Shown here one piece after another: positions 2,883-63,723 of a stretch of 64,000 nucleotides of DNA. The translations under genes were made by a program, and so were the position numbers. The notes under the pieces are model-generated. The model made no database searches. It was given only the letters and a program-made list of their open reading frames with translations, and was not told the DNA's origin. The stretch's first letter is position 1. Each line of letters begins with the position of its first letter. Source of the DNA: an uncultured delta proteobacterium (GTDB lineage Bacteria; Desulfobacterota; WTBG01); NCBI GenBank assembly GCA_963793865.1, contig CAWCBP010000011.1:117652-181651 (forward strand). Direction: 5' to 3'.

Positions 2883-3485
2883 ATGAAGAAAAAAGAAATT
2901 GATACGCGGGGGCTTGCCTGTCCCGAGCCGGTGGTTTTAACCAAAAAGGCGCTCGATGAAACGGGGGCAGGAGAAATCCTGGTCCTGGCAGACACGGAAA
3001 ACGCCCGTGACAACATCGTCCGCTTTGCTCAGAGCCAGGGCTGTGAGGTGAACGTGGCTGAAGATCAGGGATATTACCGGATCAGCATCACAAAGAAAGC
3101 GGGCTCGAAGCCGGTTGCTGAGCCTTATGTTGACACGTGCCCTTCTTCCGGCAGGGAAATTGTGTATCTTTTTGACAGCGACCACGTGGGCAGCAATCGA
3201 GAGCTGGGAAAAGTGCTGTTAAACGGCTTTATGAATGCGGCGCTTTCGCTTCCCTATAAAAAGTGCGCAGTGATATTGATCAGCAAAGGGGTAAAGCTTG
3301 CCATCAGAGGTTCCTACGCGCTTGAGGTGCTGGGCAAGCTGCAAAAACAGGGGGTCAGCATTTTAATCTGCGGAACATGCCTTGACTTTTTCAAAATACG
3401 GGAGGCGGTGGAAATCGGGACCGTTTCAAATGCTCTGGAGATCATGGAGTGTATGACCGGCGCATCTAAAACCATAAAATTGTGA
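2883..3485 (+). CDS. yedF: Sulfurtransferase-like selenium metabolism protein YedF (TusA/SirA + DsrE-like)
   Basis: IDTRGLACPEPVV TusA motif at the N-terminus; ILICGTCLDFF DsrE-like motif at the C-terminus. Confidence 0.85.
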   Translation: MKKKEIDTRGLACPEPVVLTKKALDETGAGEILVLADTENARDNIVRFAQSQGCEVNVAEDQGYYRISITKKAGSKPVAEPYVDTCPSSGREIVYLFDSDHVGSNRELGKVLLNGFMNAALSLPYKKCAVILISKGVKLAIRGSYALEVLGKLQKQGVSILICGTCLDFFKIREAVEIGTVSNALEIMECMTGASKTIKL

Positions 3486-48659: not shown

Positions 48660-48810
48660 AAATAATTCACTTTTCATTAAAAATAGTGTATTATTGATAC
48701 AATAAAATATTCAATTATATGTGAAATGCTTTAGCGATGGTTGAAAAAAGCCTTAACATCAAAACCGGTAGTGGAATCCGCGAAGTTATTCTGAAAGAAG
48801 GAGGCTGGTA

Positions 48811-49758
48811 ATGTCTGTGTATATCCCGAAAAAGCTTTTCTCAGTACTGGCGGTGACCGTGTTTTGCTTGATCCTGTCTCAGCCCTCCTGGGGTCAGTGA
48901 GGGACGTGCACAACAACGACATCGGTCGGATGTTACAGCGATGTTACCCCGGAAGCCGCAAAGGCCATGATTGACTCCAATCCCGGGCTGATTGTGGTGG
49001 ATGTAAGGGAGTTAACCGAGTACTGCAGCGAGACGGCAACTCCGCCCGGTCACATACCAGGTGCTCGCAATTATCCCTGGAACTCGGAAGTGTTGCAGGA
49101 TCGCTATGAAGAACTTCCCATCAATGGTGATATCCTGGTTTACTGCGGGATGAGCATCCGCAGTCCCCAGGCTGCAGCTTTTCTCTGCACCCATGGCTTT
49201 ACCTCTGTCTATAATATGAACCCCGGCTTGACTTCCTGGCCGTATGAGACGGTCGGCTGTGTTGACACAGACGGTGACGGCATCAATGATGACCTGGATC
49301 ATTGCACGGATACTGACAATGATGGCTTTGGTGACCCGGGATTTGCCCTGAACACCTGCTATCTGGACAATTGTCCTGATACGCCCAACTCAAATCAAGC
49401 TGATGCTGATGGCGACTGTATCGGGGACGTGTGTGATCCCGAACCGGCTGTGTATGATCCCTTAACCGTTGACTCCTATCCTCCGGGCGGCAATAACTGC
49501 GGGGATCTCTGTGAGTGCGAGGGCAACTTCGATGGTGACAATGATGTGGATGGGACTGACGCCTCCGCCTTCAAGGCTGATTTCGGCCGGAACACAATTA
49601 TAGACCCCTGCACTAATGAGTCACCCTGCAATGGTGACTTTGAGTGCGATAAGGATGTGGATGGGAATAATGCGTCACGATTCAAGGGGGATTTCGGAAG
49701 AAACGCATACCAGAAGCCCTGCCCGGATTGCTTAACCGACCCCTGTGTCTATCCATAA
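48811..49758 (+). CDS. Exported rhodanese + TSP3 + dockerin-like protein; probable selenoprotein (in-frame TGA 48898-48900)
   Basis: AAGGAGG RBS, ATG 48811, signal peptide ending SWG, Q-TGA-G-T-C, then in frame into ORF 48967; DVRE..EY, GHIPGA, VYCGMSIRS. Confidence 0.75.
48901..48950 (+). promoter_or_regulatory. SECIS-like hairpin directly 3' of the UGA
   Basis: Upper stem GACATC/GATGTT closes a GGTCG loop 23 nt after the UGA; lower pairing GGG/CCC, ACGT/ATGT, GC/GC. Confidence 0.6.
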
Positions 49759-54483: not shown

Positions 54484-55638
54484 ATGGCTATGCTGGAGGC
54501 AATAAGTAACGGATTATCTGGGCTGGCCGCGGGTACGCTTCATATGCACTGGTCCAACCCGGTGATGATCGCCGTGGGCGGCCTGTTGCTCTACCTGGCC
54601 ATCAAAAAAGACGTGGAACCGTTGCTGCTGGTCCCCATCGGATTCGGCGCCATCCTGGTCAACATCCCGCTGGCCGGTTTGATGGAAGAAGAAGGGTTTC
54701 TGCGCACCATTTACAACATGGGCGTGGCCAATGAACTTTTTCCTTTGCTGATCTTCATCGGCATCGGCGCCATGACCGATTTCGGCCCTCTGCTGGAGAA
54801 CCCCAAGATTTTCCTGCTGGGGGCCGCCGGCCAGTTCGGCATCTTTCTGACCCTGGGTCTGGCCCTTTTCTTAGGCTTTACCAAACTGGAGGCGGTGGCC
54901 ATCGGCGTCATCGGCGCCTGCGACGGCCCCACCGCCATCTATGTGACCTCCAAATTCGCCCCCCATCTGTTGGGGGCGGTTTCCGTGGCGGCCTATTCGT
55001 ATATGTCTCTGGTGCCGGTGATTCAACCGCCCATCATGCGACTGCTGACCACCGAAAAAGAGCGCAAGATCAGTCATGGACAGCGACGAGACCAAGACGG
55101 TCTCCAAGAAGGCACAAGCATCGTCTTTCCCATCGTCGATCACGATCATCGGCGGGCTGATCGCGCCCAAGGGGCTGCCGCTCTTCGGCACCATCATGCT
55201 GGGCAACCTCATGCGGAGAGTCGGGCGTGGTCAGCCGCCTCACCAAGGCCTCGGAGAATGAAATCGCCAACGTGGTAACGCTTTTTTTGGGCATCTCCAT
55301 CGGTGCCACCATGGACGGACCGGCTCTTTTTGAAGACCCCAGACCCTGCTGATCCTGGCCTTCGGTTTCCTGGCCATCTGCCTGGATACCGTGTGCGGCG
55401 TGCTCTTCGGCAAGCTGATGTACGTGTCACCGGCGGCAAGGTCAATCCCCTGATCGGCGCGGCGGGTATTTCGGCCTTTCCCATGGCCGCCCGGGTGGTG
55501 CAGCGGAAGGGCAGAAGTACAACAAGCAGAACTTTCTGCTCATGCATGCCATGGGCGCCAATGCAGGCGGTCAGAGTCGGTTCGGTCATGGCGGCGGCAG
55601 TCATGCTGTCCGTGCTGAAGGGCATGGGTATTATCTGA
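54484..55638 (+). CDS. oadB: Na+-translocating decarboxylase subunit beta (OadB/GcdB/MmdB); many frameshifts in the 3' half
   Basis: EPLLLVPIGFG, GAMTDFGPL, GAAGQFGIF, IGACDGPTAI, AAYSYM, NPLIGAAGISAFPMAARV. Confidence 0.9.
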
Positions 55639-55677
55639 TTCTTTATTATCAATCAATCTGAATAAGGAGAATGCTAG

Positions 55678-56174: not shown

Positions 56175-57478
56175 ATGAAAACATTCTCCTGGATTTTATT
56201 AGTCGGGCTTGTCGCTGGCGAGATAACCGCACCGTTGGCTGAAGGAGCATACCCTGCAGATCCTACCGCAGATGTTGCATGGCTGTCATCATGCGGATAT
56301 TCGGGCGTTGCGAGCATCCAGTGTGCTTTTAACAACGCCCGTTCAGCTGAAAATGGCCAGCTGGGTGGGTCCGTTCCAGCTCTGGTGCTGCCATCGCAGA
56401 CGACGTGGAATACCATGAGCGATAAAGAAAAAGCGCTCTGGCTGACCAACCGGGAGCGTATTGACCGGGGGGCGACCCCTTGGCGGATGTAGAGACGAAC
56501 GTGACAGGTGTTGCTGAAACCTATGCAAATTACATGTTGGATAACGATTGCTGGGGACATGAATGCGATGGCCGTACCCCCTGGGAGCGGCTTGCGGACA
56601 ACCCGGACATCGGAGCCTGTCATGATTTCCTGTCTGTTGCGGAGAATCTTGCAGCCTTTCGTGCATCCGGCGGCTCCATTCCACTTCCTGTTGAGCGGTC
56701 TGTGTATGAGTGGATGTATAAGGATACCGCAAGCTCCTGGGGCCACCGGCATACCATTTTATGGTACCCCTATAACGATAACAGCGGTGCAGCGGGGATG
56801 GAAGGGTTCCTGGGAATCGGCCGGGCGAGCGGATCCTGGCAGAGTTACCCGGTTGCCGAAATTATCGTAATGAATGTATTTGATCCCTGTGCCGGCTGGG
56901 CAGATGCGGATGGCGACGGTATCCCCGATGATGAGGACAACTGCCCCATGGAGGATAACCCCGGTCAGGAAAATGGAGATGGTGACGTAACGGGGGATGC
57001 ATGTGATACCTGTACTGATACTGACAGTGACAGCTTTGGTAACCCGGGATTCCCGGTTAACACCTGCACTGCAGATAATTGCCCTTCTGTAGCCAATCCG
57101 GATCAGGCTGATAATGACGGTGACTGCATCGGGAATGCCTGTGATCCTGAGCCTGAGGTGTATGATCCGTCTGCACCCGACTCATATCCCCCGCAGGGTA
57201 ACGATATTGGAGATGCCTGTGATTGCGAGGGCAACTTTAACTGCGCGGCGGACCAGGACGTGGATGGAAGCGATGCATCGATCTTCAAGGCGGATTTCGG
57301 TCGCAATTCCATGATTGAGCCCTGCAATGCCGGAGATCCCTGCAACGGCAATTTTGATTGTGACTTTGACGTCGACGGTTCGGACGCATCCCTCTTCAAA
57401 TCTGACTTTGGCAGAAGCACATTCAGCAACCCCTGTCCCGTGTGTCCAAGCGGCATGGAGTGGTGTGTGTATCCATAG
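56175..57478 (+). CDS. Exported CAP/SCP-domain + TSP3 + dockerin-like protein; frameshift near 56480
   Basis: Signal peptide; LTNRERIDRG, WGH, AENLA, WMY...WGHRHTIL; TSP3 repeats; shared C-terminal module. Confidence 0.78.
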
Positions 57479-57719
57479 TTTTACCATGAGGAAGAGAGTA
57501 TGAAAAAATTTGCTCTGTTATTCCTGCCGTGGTGGGCATAATGGCGGATGATAAAATTAAGGCAGGCGTCAAGACAATGCTGGATGCTATGTTGCCGTTC
57601 ATCAGGCATGAGATGAACAAGCAGCCACTTTTAAGGAAGGGTCATTAGATTCTTATATGCTCAGATCTAAAAATGTACTAGCCGATGGCTGGTTTTTCTC
57701 TCAGAAATATTGATAACCG

Positions 57720-57769
57720 GTAGAAGCGGCTTTAAGCCGCGAAGGTATCGCGCATAAATGCGCTCCTAC
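57720..57769. repeat. GTAG-type REP doublet
   Basis: GTAGAAGCGGCTTTAAGCCGCGA...TCGCGCATAAATGCGCTCCTAC, 50 bp like the copy at 31474. Confidence 0.78.
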
Positions 57770-58146
57770 CGGAATTTCAAATATCTTTGGCTGGAATTTA
57801 GTCTAAGAATATAGCAGTCTAAGGCAGGAGTTCAATTCCTCGTGCCTTTTTTCTTGTATACAGATTCAGAGAGCGCAACAGAGAGTTTATTTCTATTGCC
57901 GAATTAAGAGCATTGCATGGGTGAGCTGATTTACATTTCTGCCTGGGTCACTTTCCTTGACGTGTTAATATCCTGCGCTCTCACTTATAAGATGCAAAAA
58001 AGTGGAGACTGGTCAATAAGGCAGAGAAAAATATAGAAGCCCGCGAATAAGATAAAAAAACTTTACTTTTTAATATAAATCATGTATTATATGTGAATTG
58101 TTTTTAAATATCTGATTGATATAATTAGCTTTGAGCGGAGGATTAA

Positions 58147-59106
58147 ATGCACAAAAATGGTATAGCATTCACGTCTTTTTTCTTTTTCTTGATGTTTTTA
58201 TGGCTTCCTGTGTTTGCCTGGGGGCACATTAATGTGTCACCTGAGCAGGCAAAGGCAATGATCGGTACCAATAATGAGTTGATAGTCATTGATGTAAGGG
58301 AGCCGGGTGAATATTGCGGTTTTAATGGTCATATCCCCGGGGCGCTCAATTATCCGTGGAACTCCGGTGTGCTTCAGGCGCGCTACACGGAACTGCCTGT
58401 TAACGGGGAAATACTGGCTGTCTGTGGAAGCGGTGCCCGCAGTAACTCAGCTGCAAACTTTCTTGATTCCCAGGGTTATCTCCACGTCTATGATATGTCG
58501 GGCGGGATGTCTGTCTGGACATATGATCAGGTCCGGTGCGTAGACACAGATGGTGATGGCATTAATGATGATCTGGATAATTGTTCTTCTATCCCGAATT
58601 CTAATCAGGGGGATGCGGATGGCGATGAGGCAGGTGATCTGTGTGACAACTGTCCCAATCATTATAATCGGCACCAAATTGATTGTGATAACGATGGCAC
58701 AGGAGATGTGTGTGACGCAGATACTGTAGACCAAGATGGCGATGGGGTAGATGACGGAGAAGGTGCAGGTCATGGATGTGACAACTGCCCCGCCACATCA
58801 AACAATGATCAGTCAGATTTCTACCCTCCGGCAGGTAATACCTGCGGGGATCTCTGTGAGTGTGAGGGCAACTTCGATGGTGACACGGATGTGGACGGTA
58901 GTGACGCATCCGCCTTCAAAGTTGATTTCGGCCGGAGCAAAATCTTAGACCCGTGTTCCAATGCATTACCCTGCAGCGGTGACTTTGTGTGCGATAATGA
59001 TGTAGACGGGGGTGATGCGGCATTATTCAAGGGGGATTTTGGAAGGAGCTCTTTTAAGAATCCCTGTTCCAACTGTGTAACAGCACCCTGGTGTGTGTAT
59101 CCATAG
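58147..59106 (+). CDS. Exported rhodanese + TSP3 + dockerin-like protein
   Basis: Signal peptide ending AWG; IDVREPGEY, GHIPGA, VCGSGARS; shared C-terminal module. Confidence 0.88.
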   Translation: MHKNGIAFTSFFFFLMFLWLPVFAWGHINVSPEQAKAMIGTNNELIVIDVREPGEYCGFNGHIPGALNYPWNSGVLQARYTELPVNGEILAVCGSGARSNSAANFLDSQGYLHVYDMSGGMSVWTYDQVRCVDTDGDGINDDLDNCSSIPNSNQGDADGDEAGDLCDNCPNHYNRHQIDCDNDGTGDVCDADTVDQDGDGVDDGEGAGHGCDNCPATSNNDQSDFYPPAGNTCGDLCECEGNFDGDTDVDGSDASAFKVDFGRSKILDPCSNALPCSGDFVCDNDVDGGDAALFKGDFGRSSFKNPCSNCVTAPWCVYP

Positions 59107-59175
59107 TGAGGAGATTCATAAATTATGCCTCGCGCAGTCCTTTTTTTGTTGAAGCTGCTTATCAAGGGGTATTCT

Positions 59176-60765
59176 ATGAAACGGTTATCAATAATGGCGA
59201 TTTTCCCACTGCTATTATTGCCGGCTTCTTCCTGGTCAACAGCTGTTCCCGACTCGGGGCAGACCAGGTGTTATGACAGCAGTGAGCAAATCGTCTGTCC
59301 GCAACCTGGAGCGGATTTTTATGGTCAGGATGCTCAATATGGCGCCAACCGGCAGTCCTATACCAAGCTTGATGCGAACGGCAATGAATTGCCTGATGAT
59401 GCCGCTGCCTGGGCTATGATACGGGACAATATCACCGGGTTGATCTGGGAGAATAAAACTGCTGACGGTTCAATTCATGATACAGGTACCGCCACTAACT
59501 GGAACATTGCTCAAATTTTTATTATCTCTCAGTTCAACGCACAGAAATTTGGCGGATATAACGACTGGCGATTGCCAACGGTTAAAGAGTTGAGCTCCAT
59601 TGTCGACAGAAGCATCATATTGGCCAGCCCGGCAATAAATACAGACTATTTTCCAAACACAGCCTCGTCCTCCTACTGGTCGTCTACTACCTATGCTTCC
59701 ATTCCGGAGAGTGCCTGGCTCGTATCGTTTCGCAGCGGCGGCTTGAGCTATGGGAAAAAATCATGCAGCGGCGGTCAGGTGCGGGCGGTCCGCAGCGGTC
59801 TGTGCAGGTCACCAGGCAATTACGTCGATAATGGTGACGGAACAGTCACTGATACCGTAACCGGTTTGGTCTGGCAAGCATATACCGCCTCAGGGACGTA
59901 CACCTGGCGGCAAGCACTTGCCTATGGCGAAAGTCTTCAGCTGGCAGGGTATACTGATTGGCGGCTGCCGAATATAAATGAACTTCAGTCACTGGCAGAA
60001 TATGGTCGCTACGATACCTCCATAGATACAGCTGCGTTTCCCGGCACGTTGTCGTCCTATTACTGGTCCTCTACGACCGACTCCCGTTCTGAGGAGAATG
60101 CATGGTTTGTCAGTTTCAGCAATGGCTACATGGACAGTACCACTAAGTCAGTCAGCTACTACGTGCGGGCGGTTCGCGGGGGGCAGTGCGCGTTTAATGG
60201 TGATGCGGATTGCGATAGCATTCTCAATGAAAATGACAGCTGCCCGTATTGTTACAATTCGGGACAGGAGAATGCGGACGGGGATGGATTGGGTGACGGT
60301 TGTGATAATTGCCCTGAGGCCACCAATCCGGGACAGGAGGATGCTGACGCGGATGCGATAGGTGACGCCTGCGATTCCTGCCCTCATGACCATGACAATG
60401 ATATTGATAGCGATACCATCTGCGGTAACGTTGACAGCTGTCCCACTGCTCCCAACGAAGATCAATTGGATTCTTACCCGCCGCAGGGTAACGGCATGGG
60501 TGATACCTGTGATTGTGAAGGCAATTTCAACTGCTCAGTGGATCAGGACGTTGATGGCTCTGATGCCGCAACCTTCAAGGCAGACTTTGGGCGAAATGTC
60601 CTAACGAATACGTGTACAGCGATAAGCCCCTGCGCCGGTGACTTCTCATGTGATAGAGATGTCGATGGTTCTGATGCGAGCTTATTTAAACAGGATTTCG
60701 GCCGCAGCCAGATTAAAAATCCATGCCCTGTGTGTAAGAGTGGTCCATGGTGCGTTTATCCATAG
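59176..60765 (+). CDS. Exported tandem DUF1566 (Lcl C-terminal) + TSP3 + dockerin-like protein
   Basis: PDSGQTRCY, DNITGLIWE, DWRLPTVKEL, YWSSTT and VRAVR motifs twice; shared C-terminal module. Confidence 0.88.
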   Translation: MKRLSIMAIFPLLLLPASSWSTAVPDSGQTRCYDSSEQIVCPQPGADFYGQDAQYGANRQSYTKLDANGNELPDDAAAWAMIRDNITGLIWENKTADGSIHDTGTATNWNIAQIFIISQFNAQKFGGYNDWRLPTVKELSSIVDRSIILASPAINTDYFPNTASSSYWSSTTYASIPESAWLVSFRSGGLSYGKKSCSGGQVRAVRSGLCRSPGNYVDNGDGTVTDTVTGLVWQAYTASGTYTWRQALAYGESLQLAGYTDWRLPNINELQSLAEYGRYDTSIDTAAFPGTLSSYYWSSTTDSRSEENAWFVSFSNGYMDSTTKSVSYYVRAVRGGQCAFNGDADCDSILNENDSCPYCYNSGQENADGDGLGDGCDNCPEATNPGQEDADADAIGDACDSCPHDHDNDIDSDTICGNVDSCPTAPNEDQLDSYPPQGNGMGDTCDCEGNFNCSVDQDVDGSDAATFKADFGRNVLTNTCTAISPCAGDFSCDRDVDGSDASLFKQDFGRSQIKNPCPVCKSGPWCVYP

Positions 60766-60799
60766 AGAAGTAGCTGACGTCAGTTTTATCTCTCCTGGC

Positions 60800-60836
60800 A
60801 ACACCCCTTCAGCAGCCGGCGCTGAGGGGGTGTTTT
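60800..60836 (+). terminator. Intrinsic terminator (paralogous to 63751)
   Basis: AACACCCCTTCAGC...GCTGAGGGGGTGTTTT. Confidence 0.8.
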
Positions 60837-60892
60837 ATAAAACGGTGCCGGAACAGATAAACCTCCGGCAAGAGAACCTGTTCAGCCTAATG

Positions 60893-60935
60893 CACTTTTC
60901 TCTTTGACACCATATAGCGCAAATGATATGAGAAA
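60893..60935 (+). promoter_or_regulatory. Sigma-70-like promoter, duplicated at 63897
   Basis: TTGACA-CCATATAGCGCAAATGA-TATGAG. Confidence 0.6.
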
Positions 60936-61255
60936 CTTATATTAGTGAATTAACAGAAGCCCAAAAGTTGAGCTCAACACAACAATTAATCATTTATTTA
61001 AGCTGCCTTATGCTATATCCGTCGAAAAACCCGCCAGATCTCATTTATCTCATCATGGCTTGAAAATTTTACCCCACATTTTGTCAAAGCTGATCTTTAC
61101 TTTATTAAATCGATATGCTAAATTTACATTAATTTAAAAAGCGCTATAAGATACCCGATTGCTCATCGACACTTAAGGCCTTTAGCACAGTTTCTACACA
61201 GGAGCGTAAGTTGTAATCTATATTAATATATATTTATTTTAGCGAAGAAGGAGGA

Positions 61256-63723
61256 ATGGGCATGAGATACAAAAATTTTTTTCTTACTTTTATGACGATC
61301 TGTTTATTTGCAGGTAATGCCATAGCGCAGCCGCCGGTTGAGGATCGGGTTGCTGTGCTCATTACCGGCTGGTGCATGCCCGCTGGCTACAATTTTGACT
61401 ATGCCTGGACAACCAGCGATTACCCTCGTATCGGAGATAAAACTGAGGTTGAGGGTCAGTCGTGCAAAATAGGCCACCTGGGAGATTTTCCTTACCAGTC
61501 GCACATCAGCATGATTCCCTGGGCAATTACCTTTCTTACGCCGGGCTATGAGGACTTTTTTGATTATCATGGTATTTACACTTATAATGAGACGCTTGAT
61601 GTGTATGAACATCCCAACCCTGACGTTCCTGATGTTAATGCAGCGGACATACCTGCCGGAACTCCAATAACACCCTTGGTGAAGTGCTGCGAGAGGGGTA
61701 CCGGAGTATCCGCCGGATCCAAGAACCGGTGAAGACCTTCTGGCAGGATGGTACCGGATCGGCAGTTTTCAGGTTCCATATCGAAACGGCGTGCATGATC
61801 TGGTTGAAGCCGGCCCTGCACTCTATGTTCGCTACTACGGGATTATGGGCGTGCCCGAAGGAACAACTGATCCCAGCGAACCGCCTCCTGCAATCAAGGC
61901 ACAGGATGAACATCTTGATTTGCTTATGACCAATGCTTTCGGGGATAACATTGACCTGCGTTACGGGTGTTATACGGCCATGCCGGGATACACAAAACTT
62001 CATGATGAGGTAGCGGAGGAGTTTGCAACAGAAGGATACCGGAAGCTGCTCGATTGCCCGCGAGACGACAGACCACAACCGCTACGCCAATGAGTTTTTA
62101 TCGGGGAATTTTGTCAAGGAGCGGCTGTGCGAACTCGGGGTGCTGGACGGTACGGAGATTCACCAGTCCCGCCAGGTGGGAAGGACGCCGGAGTTCAACA
62201 GCATGAATGTAATGAACCTCAAATCCTACATCGAGGCTTACCCGGAGGGAAGCACCATCGGCATCATTTATGTAACCCGGGGGCTTACCTGGTATAAGGA
62301 GGAGACAACCGGTCCCTTCGGTAGTGCCCATCCCTGGAGCAAGGAAGTGTATCATGATAATGCCTATCTCAACTATCTCTCATGGAAAAAGGCCCTGCAG
62401 GCTGCCTACGGTGACCGCTACAATCTTGTATTCACCAGGGATGGGGTGGCAACAGACCTGCGGGAGGAGAATTTCTTCACCTATGGATTGGCAACTGACA
62501 TTGATCTAAAGGGATACGGGGGAGCAACGGTGTTTTACAGTATCCGGGACGCCATCGAACTGGCGATTGCAGATGGTCTTGAGCAGATAATCGTCGCTCC
62601 CTGTCACTGGAATTATGACAGCCTGGATACCATTTTTCGCATGCAGGAGTACAACACGCTTCCGGTAGCGCCCAAGGCCCAGCTTGAAGCTGGAAACTTT
62701 GCCTACACCCACTGTGAGGATGTATCGGGTAATGTGGTGGATTGTGCCTCTGTCAATTCGGTTGTTGAAATCACTGTGGCGCCCTCTTACAGCAATCTGC
62801 CGGAAGAGTTTGCCACGGCTTACTATGTTGTGCTGCGAGGGGCGCTCGAACGGTTTGGTCTCAGCCCGGCGGGGGAAGCGCCTTCTATTGAAGCATCGCA
62901 ACTGGTAACCAAGCTTGCCGGCGGCACGGTTGAAGTGACCGCGTCCGCAAGCCCGATCAAAGGGGCTAAGATTGCCGTACCGGCTGATCCTTATCCCACC
63001 CGGCCGGAAGAGTTTACGCCGGCGACTGCCATACCTGTCAATGATCCGGAAGACACCAATGATTGCATGTGGGAGGACACGCTCATAACCCTTGGGTATC
63101 GATCCACGCCTCCGGCGATGAGCGTTACCCAGCCGGCGGGACCGGCCGTCGCATGCGGGCCCTATCGCACGTTCTTTAACCGGGATGTCACCATCACCAT
63201 TCCCTATGACAGTGAGTCGGCCGGTGTCCAGCCGGTACGCGTGGGCATGTATAATCATGTTACCGAAGACTGGAATACCATTGTGCCCGACAGTGTGGAT
63301 GCGGTGAATAGCACCGTGACTTTCAGCACCCAGGTTCTCGGCCTTTTTCAGGCCTCAGTGGGAGACCGGGATGCTGACGGCGTGGCTGATGCAAGCGATA
63401 ATTGTGTTGTGCAATCTAACCCTGCCCAGCGGGACACCTATCCTCCCGCAGGGAATGGGATAGGGGATATCTGTGATTGCGAGGGGAATTTTGATTGTGA
63501 TAGCGACTGTGACGGGTCCGACGCAGCGATCTTCAAAGTGGATTTTGGTCGCAGCTCCATGAGTGGGCCCTGTAATGCCGGCGATCTATGTAATGGAGAT
63601 TTTTCGTGTAACGGCAATGTGGATGGAACTGACGCGGCACGCTTCAAGTCTGATTTTGGCAGAACCGGACTTACTAACCCCTGTCCTGCGTGTGAAGCCG
63701 GAGTGCCATGGTGTCAGTATTAG
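61256..63723 (+). CDS. Exported ferrochelatase-like (class II chelatase fold) + ZU5-like + dockerin-like protein; frameshifts near 61690 and 62050
   Basis: Signal peptide; VAVLITGW, GIIYVTRGL, DAIELAIADGLEQIIVAPCHWNYDSLDTI; GGTV..GAKIAVP..FNRDVTITIPY; shared C-terminal module. Confidence 0.65.

Follow-up and report, generated by a model that had tools for sequence, protein, structure and literature searches.

An exported rhodanese of an uncultured deltaproteobacterium with a predicted selenocysteine in an N-terminal arm outside the active site

In several of the rhodanese selenoproteins described so far, namely the forms numbered 1, 2, and 4 below, selenocysteine (Sec, U) is carried at the active site. 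A 2026 review counts 119 prokaryotic selenoprotein families, and the five rhodanese forms in its Table 1 display the motifs UxxS, UxxG, CxU, UxxG, and UxxxxU (forms 1 to 5; PMC13188914). The protein analyzed here resembles these forms in its rhodanese domain, its predicted Sec, and its association with Sec-rich anaerobes, but its active-site loop is without Sec, which is instead predicted 12 residues before the domain, in a U-x(0-2)-C motif absent from the five forms of that table. It scored far below the cut-offs of NF041203 (LYCAU, form 3; 24.2 bits, cut-off 115) and NF045694 (TsoB, form 5; 13.2 bits, cut-off 805), no NCBIfam model exceeded its cut-off for this protein, and the motifs of forms 1, 2, and 4 (PF00581 with UxxS or UxxG), which were compared by motif only, do not occur in its family. 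A full-text literature search returned no description of this protein; supplements or the BSepDB site might list it, and one BSepDB supplement (PMC13326102) has no match to the word "rhodanese", which says nothing on the presence of the family. From sequence comparison, the gene likely represents a sixth rhodanese selenoprotein form, with Sec outside the active site and predicted to lie outside the cell.

Other described proteins share parts of this design. A comparable layout, by analogy, is that of SelTryp from trypanosomatids, whose rhodanese domains keep the active-site Cys while Sec belongs to a separate C/U motif at an end predicted to be flexible, although SelTryp is eukaryotic, about 800 aa long, and includes a metallo-beta-lactamase domain and a C-terminal CxxU (PMC1557815). 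In the mobile Cys loop of Staphylococcus CstB and the swinging arm of CoA-persulfide reductase, a tethered thiol covers as much as ~27 A to meet a rhodanese Cys, with which it exchanges sulfur; these arms are cytoplasmic, handle sulfur only, and are fused to a dioxygenase or a flavin reductase (PMC12934615). Unlike them, the protein described here has no second catalytic domain and its arm is a 13-residue peptide; PDB entries 3icr, 3nta, and 8a56 are among its fold matches. GlpE (1gmx), PspE (2jtq), and periplasmic Sud (1qxn), the latter two of which are exported, have the same fold and a six-residue Cys loop (VIA-align: GlpE Z 15.2, rmsd 2.3 A, 104 residues; Sud Z 12.6), but no arm, Sec, Ca-binding repeats, or dockerin-like tail. 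Finally, arm-less exported rhodaneses (signal peptide-H-T-D-V-T-P..., e.g., the paralog at 58147) are 50-64% identical across the domain and likewise exported, with EYC and a terminal Cys; they differ in that the mature protein begins at the domain and in that Asp replaces Cys126 in 135 database entries. Planctomycetota-named entries are found among these arm-less matches.

The gene is located in a 64,000-nucleotide stretch of contig CAWCBP010000011.1 (assembly GCA_963793865.1), hereafter the window. A continuous frame extends from ATG 48811 to TAA 49756-49758 and yields 315 aa with the UGA decoded (Table 1). Residues G-T-C-T-T-T-T-S-V-G-C-Y-S-D-V-T-P follow U30, and the sequence after the TGA, GTCTTTTSVGCYSDVTPEAAKAM, joins ORF 48967-49758 in frame. 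The ribosome-binding site, start codon, and in-frame TGA without frameshift given in the original prediction were exact, and the translation was confirmed. The encoded protein comprises, in order, a hydrophobic leader, the arm, the rhodanese domain, Asp/Cys-rich repeats, and a duplicated tail. The gene looks monocistronic, and the inverted repeat after it is likely a bidirectional terminator.

Table 1. Coordinates of the features discussed (window positions unless a genome contig is named)
Feature	Position	Strand	Basis or remark
Shine-Dalgarno AAGGAGG	48798-48804	+	6 nt upstream of ATG 48811; from sequence
Predicted signal peptide, residues 1-28, ending S-W-G	48811-48894	+	hydrophobic core 3.2; paralog N-termini
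Gln29, predicted first mature residue	48895-48897	+	Gln in 8/10 UGA genes
In-frame TGA, predicted selenocysteine U30	48898-48900	+	codon 30
Partner Cys33	48907-48909	+	1-3 residues after U in 10/10 genes
Thr-rich linker TTTT-SVG	48910-48930	+	same codons also make RNA hairpin
Predicted SECIS hairpin GACATC[GGTCG]GATGTT	48918-48934	+	loop starts 23 nt after UGA
Cys41, predicted arm anchor	48931-48933	+	co-occurrence with Cys126
Rhodanese domain, residues 42-150	48934-49260	+	Pfam PF00581, AlphaFold2, fold matches
Catalytic Cys112 loop CGMSIR	49144-49161	+	six-residue loop
Cys126	49186-49188	+	within rhodanese domain
Asp/Cys-rich predicted Ca-binding repeats and duplicated dockerin-like tail	49261-49755	+	ortholog/paralog Pfam matches
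14-bp inverted repeat with A and T runs, after TAA	49776-49811	strandless	sequence; missing from terminator scan list
Arm-less paralog	58147-59106	+	54% identical from residue 42; Asp for Cys126
selA	G000:C1:969976-971350 (host genome)	-	two frames in this assembly (one-base frameshift near start)

Comparative evidence makes it very probable that this TGA is decoded as selenocysteine. The same UGA lies within a continuous frame in ten distinct genes, from 4/4 genomes of the genus and six metagenome contigs; two of these genes (L057 and L060) are divergent and AT-richer, and several of the ten are close kin (L025 and L056 are alike at 50/51 fourfold sites). The metagenome scan covered 32 loci, i.e., the six of the UGA form, one (L058) with the linker and neither U nor partner Cys, and a remainder of arm-less or distant genes. 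Over 48852-49007, a contig of RNA run X17 matches the window with 0 differences, which together with the TGA in the nine other genes indicates that this codon is no sequencing or assembly slip. Contigs that span the UGA come from runs X17 and X20, and one of run X18 covers 49383-49566; these runs were chosen through their match to the rhodanese gene, and their contigs give neither strand nor expression level. Translation signals are also placed upstream of the UGA: the duplex energy of the Shine-Dalgarno sequence is -11.7 in the window and -9.3 to -12.4 across the eight of ten UGA genes in which it is strong (it is weak in L057 and L060), whereas starts beyond the UGA are without a Shine-Dalgarno sequence (-3.5 or weaker in the window, -3.6 or weaker for the UGA genes).

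The host carries genes for each part of the Sec machinery that the original prediction proposed to look for. selB, selD (itself with a TGA), and the gene for tRNA-Sec (selC) are above cut-offs in the genome, as is selA in 4/4 genomes of the genus. While selA occupies two frames in this assembly, it is unbroken in 3/3 congeners, and alignment with two of them reveals one extra base near its start here. Given these intact copies, the presence of other frameshifts in the assembly (C8:320211-321627, and split frames in the window as listed below), and the occurrence of UGA in further frames, the break is likely an assembly error. These further frames, retrieved by a genome scan, comprise four fdhA-like, two hdrA-like, and two mvhD-like frames, labels that we assume from their motifs. 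An alternative genetic code was ruled out since long frames end in TGA more often than in any other stop (438/1087), consistent with the standard code. yedF, which had been offered as selenium context, is indeed in the window (2898-3482) but about 45 kb away and thus no neighbor; that context is instead provided by selA, selB, selC, and selD elsewhere in the genome. Three window regions (54484-55652, 56175-57478, and 61256-63723) hold frames apparently split by frameshifts, which suggests indel noise.

The hairpin noted in the original prediction exists, with a G-starting loop 23 nt after the UGA, but its stability does not support it as a SECIS element. Bacterial SECIS elements have been modeled with a 3-9 nt loop, a 4-16 bp stem, G at loop position 1-2, a distance of 16-37 nt from the UGA, and an energy <= -7.5 kcal/mol, and non-conforming elements exist (PMC13188914). 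This geometry is found (6-7 bp stem, loop 23-27 nt from the UGA) in nine genes, these being the ones where our script picked this hairpin; the L059 stem is identical in sequence to that of the window. In our own constrained version of the published model, the window hairpin reaches -6.3 vs the required -7.5 kcal/mol, and 5/10 UGA genes pass (one via another hairpin), as do 96/438 ordinary TGA stops. The hairpin is not the lowest-energy fold (pair probability 0.14) and its region folds no better than chance against shuffles (z +0.4 to -0.9), and these values rule out stability as proof of a SECIS element. ACATC can alternatively pair with a second GATGT downstream, a pairing favored in the window and L057, RNAalifold picked an alternative long pairing, and no covariation was detected in the short stem, whose base pairs never vary among UGA genes.

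Support for the predicted element comes instead from frozen synonymous sites, which give a strong comparative signal. Stem third positions of T37, R/G40, and C41 are invariant in 10/10 UGA genes, vs 0/17 of the other fourfold sites of invariant residues, so that Thr37 (ACA, in the stem) is the sole invariant site of 18. The third bases of Asp44 and Val45, in the second GATGT, are likewise invariant, and L058, which has no U, changes all three stem third positions. Although kinship inflates these counts, distant pairs reach a fourfold identity of only 0.27-0.58 (7/26 sites identical between the window gene and L027). Among UGA genes, linker length compensates motif length so that the loop-UGA distance is held at 23 or 26 nt. 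With its sequence GGTC(G/C), the loop is similar to the GGTCT one located 18 nt after the UGAs of the four fdhA-like frames in the same genome, and the exact hairpin sequence occurs once in that genome.

The original proposal that Sec lies in an N-terminal arm, and that the exported protein keeps an intact Cys active site, was borne out by comparison across the family. A hydrophobic leader is encoded in every UGA gene, and its S-W-G end in the window protein aligns with the A-W-G that precedes His in the paralogs, from which cleavage is predicted before Gln29, with U30 becoming roughly the second mature residue. The arm motif had been described as UxxC, a spacing found in only 7/10 genes; two have UxC and one UC, and the family motif is better written U-x(0-2)-C (the U+3 residue is C in seven genes and P, D, or T in the rest). 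The distance from U to Cys41 is 11-12 residues throughout, with a Thr run that varies to hold it. Two known types of protein were considered and rejected. A thioredoxin-fold UxxC oxidoreductase is at odds with the spacing of 1-3, the low-confidence coil in the structural model, and the lack of a thioredoxin match. In lipoproteins, G, A, or S directly precedes the modified residue of the lipobox; the residue before U is Gln in eight genes, Thr in one, and Gly only in L057, and a Sec-lipoprotein with Sec at the lipobox Cys would fit one gene in ten.

The rhodanese domain exceeds the Pfam cut-off (PF00581 at residues 46-143, E 1e-13, 51.9 bits, cut-off 22.2), and only rhodaneses are among the fold matches listed (e.g., 3tp9: Z 17.1, rmsd 2.1 A, 105 residues). 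Cys112 and the loop Arg are invariant within an active-site loop that otherwise varies among UGA genes (CGMSIR in six, then CGLNIR, CGIGMR, CQSGYR, and CRSGGR). An AlphaFold2 model from 83 sequences reached a mean pLDDT of 90 (above 90 for the domain, 57 for the first 10 residues), an earlier one from 11 sequences being too weak (pLDDT 57); in the 83-sequence model, helix 117-127 follows Cys112, and T36-V39 form a docked strand that leaves less of the arm free. Cys72 and Cys150 likely pair within the domain. Cys41 and Cys126 co-occur in 11/11 aligned arm genes. In the database tally, which covers the 178/189 proteins above the score filter, three full-length entries have both and 135, with Asp at 126, have neither; one has a Cys in its signal peptide only, and 19 are either unscored or of other types. 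This co-occurrence leads us to infer a disulfide that likely pins the arm to the distal end of the active-site helix.

Beyond the domain, TSP_3 and Dockerin_1 matches were obtained in orthologs and the paralog, with Dockerin_1 on the tail in two orthologs and no Pfam match for this part of the window protein itself. The genome has 40 occurrences of the dockerin-like tail motif, on many exported proteins, hinting at a surface display system. A cluster of exported CAP, rhodanese, and Lcl-domain proteins with a common duplicated dockerin-like tail was also observed at window positions 56480-63723. The paralog at 58147, said at the outset to be without the arm segment, does align only from residue 42 and reads FAWG-HINV at the junction; in all, four paralogs in the genome have no arm and start A-W-G-H. 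Near-identical arm-less rhodanese genes at C2:36841-37677 and C6:5425-6260 of the same genome (G000), each beside an OS_HP2-like fragment, may stem from a recent duplication or from redundancy in the assembly. Among the neighbors of the rhodanese genes, none was recognized as a sulfur or redox gene and none points to a pathway; these neighbors are conserved only among close relatives. Neither dsrA nor an MccSep-type cytochrome was found over cut-off in the genome, and the host is thus likely not a classical sulfate reducer.

The UGA form has a narrow distribution. Outside the genus, none was detected in 42 genomes of the class, and 401 genomes of the phylum (many incomplete, as in the class set) returned two TGA matches, both within the genus; runs holding the rhodanese gene are mostly from sediment, wetland, and soil samples, at a low word share. 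Homologs had been expected to carry either UGA or Cys at this position: UGA is present in the ten genes, and Cys in none of 189 proteins from three word-based searches, only four of which, all clade members, have a readable N-terminus. The Sec/Cys pair by which bacterial selenoproteins are usually recognized was thus not found, and in these four members without U the partner Cys is missing as well, while 18 clade database entries begin at a downstream Met or Val beyond the UGA; for most of these entries a UGA is predicted in the DNA ahead of the annotated start. In a midpoint-rooted tree of 83 domains (98 columns, arm columns excluded), the ten UGA genes, 16 truncated entries, L058, and three short-N-terminus forms (reading QCY, QCR, and ECY) make up one branch of 30 rows (98/96), within which the four U-less members are scattered. 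This scatter fits repeated loss of the U/Cys pair, although a short form may instead be ancestral.

A linker already present in this genome may have given rise to the arm, since Thr tracts are common in its frames, one of them reading TTTTTSVR. A bolder possibility, which we regard as doubtful, is that there was no Cys ancestor, and that a ready-made cassette of UGA, Cys, Thr linker, and SECIS entered an ordinary exported rhodanese at the point of signal-peptide cleavage, giving a selenium swinging arm for extracellular sulfur chemistry, with N-terminal Sec arms forming a wider class. If so, N-terminal Sec arms would escape Sec/Cys-pair searches. A pattern scan of a set of genome contigs for the arm cassette on other proteins gave 52 loci, 49 without a visible signal-peptide frame and three that are the rhodanese gene itself and add no new sequence. 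One UGA-form gene (L060:1103-1759) has a second rhodanese domain in tandem, the junction reading VGC-YSDVTP, identical in sequence to the end of the arm; this may reflect duplication through this repeat or be a clue to the origin of the arm.

As to function, our preferred but tentative reading, to which we would give a little less than an even chance, is that the U-x(0-2)-C pair acts as a tethered redox arm, accepting sulfur from the protein's own Cys112. Cys112 would be loaded with sulfane sulfur from thiosulfate or polysulfide, the U30 selenolate would attack the resulting persulfide and take its sulfur, and Cys33 would resolve the adduct, with sulfide released and a selenenylsulfide left for an exported thiol-disulfide system to re-reduce. 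Inside the cell, thioredoxin or glutathione are the usual sulfur acceptors of rhodaneses, and the arm would be their substitute outside it. Rough geometry makes it plausible that U30 reaches Cys112, the 11-residue helix measuring ~16 A and six free residues ~20 A. That Sec is inserted and the arm instead acts in trans, either handing sulfur, selenium, or electrons over to a different surface protein or itself attacking sulfur rings or polysulfide, with the rhodanese domain a separate station, seems unlikely to us. The predicted Cys41-Cys126 anchor sits at the end of a helix leading away from Cys112, the common C-terminal tail suggests display among many exported proteins, and a periplasmic Sec enzyme of Geobacter reduces polysulfide (PMC13510729), all of which would suit such a role; however, no partner gene is conserved adjacent to the rhodanese across distant loci, and the U-to-anchor distance is fixed, a constancy for which SECIS spacing alone could account.

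Less probable again, in our view, is a role in which the U/C pair at the free N-terminus would hold soft metals or metalloids (Hg, Cu, Ag, As), either to sequester them as sulfide or to detoxify them. The pair's variable spacing (UC, UxC, UxxC) would be tolerable for a chelator, metal-linked selenoproteins with CU, UxC, and UxxC have been catalogued (PMC13188914, Table 1), and a second signal-peptide-U gene in the genome is near an ArsR-like gene (a label from sequence reading). Yet no metal-resistance gene was recognized next to the rhodanese loci, and vicinal or near-vicinal U/C pairs on flexible ends are typical of redox arms too (PMC1557815). Sec could also serve mainly as a switch, with the full-length protein made only when selenium is available and the four Sec-free paralogs serving other conditions. 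Termination at so early a UGA would waste just a 29-residue peptide, arm-less paralogs are at hand, and the linker codons double as the hairpin, but a switch has no need of the partner Cys, which lies within three residues of U in 10/10 genes and is absent whenever U is, and we hold this reading improbable. The least credible reading, which the data largely refute, is that the TGA truly terminates translation or is erroneous, leaving a pseudogene or a restart at Met53. The weak hairpin energy, the frameshifted selA and other indels in the assembly, and the 18 entries starting downstream would agree with it, while the same TGA in ten genes with diverged synonymous sites and the independent RNA contig without differences argue against it. 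Met53, which gene callers use as the start, is without a Shine-Dalgarno sequence and missing in L059 and L060, and starting there would cut into the domain, at the cost of its first strand and of half its first helix in the AlphaFold2 model.

The family also bears on how selenoproteins are found. According to a 2025 paper, Cys homologs seem to exist for every selenoprotein known, and its method discards any that have none (PMC12013277); a family with no Cys form among 189 proteins falls in the blind spot of Cys-homolog-based methods, and may represent a second route to a selenoprotein, through the addition of a Sec-bearing arm. Gene callers meanwhile cut such proteins at the UGA, and the clade entries that start behind it appear cytoplasmic. 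Although limited to uncultured sediment bacteria, the unit of arm plus domain, 125 residues long and with arm-less paralogs at hand as natural controls, offers a small test system for the contribution of selenium to sulfur transfer.

Two further frames with an early TGA were noted in the host genome. The frame at G000:C1:314206-314970 (- strand; L165:1707-2471) has a signal-like leader followed by UGA (AG-U-GGKSGC), a G-loop hairpin 18 nt after the UGA, and a remainder like the C-terminal part of OS_HP2/DUF1573, and sits between an ABC transporter pair and the ArsR-like gene mentioned above. Its N-terminal part has no match in the three congeners, which makes this single-copy evidence, and AG-U is also lipobox-like; it is a candidate for a second N-terminal Sec arm, on an unrelated exported protein. 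The other, at G000:C1:873652-874584 (- strand; L166:1153-2085), has a TGA within its predicted signal peptide, encodes 311 aa with no Pfam or NCBIfam match, and may reflect a Trp-to-stop change or an error.
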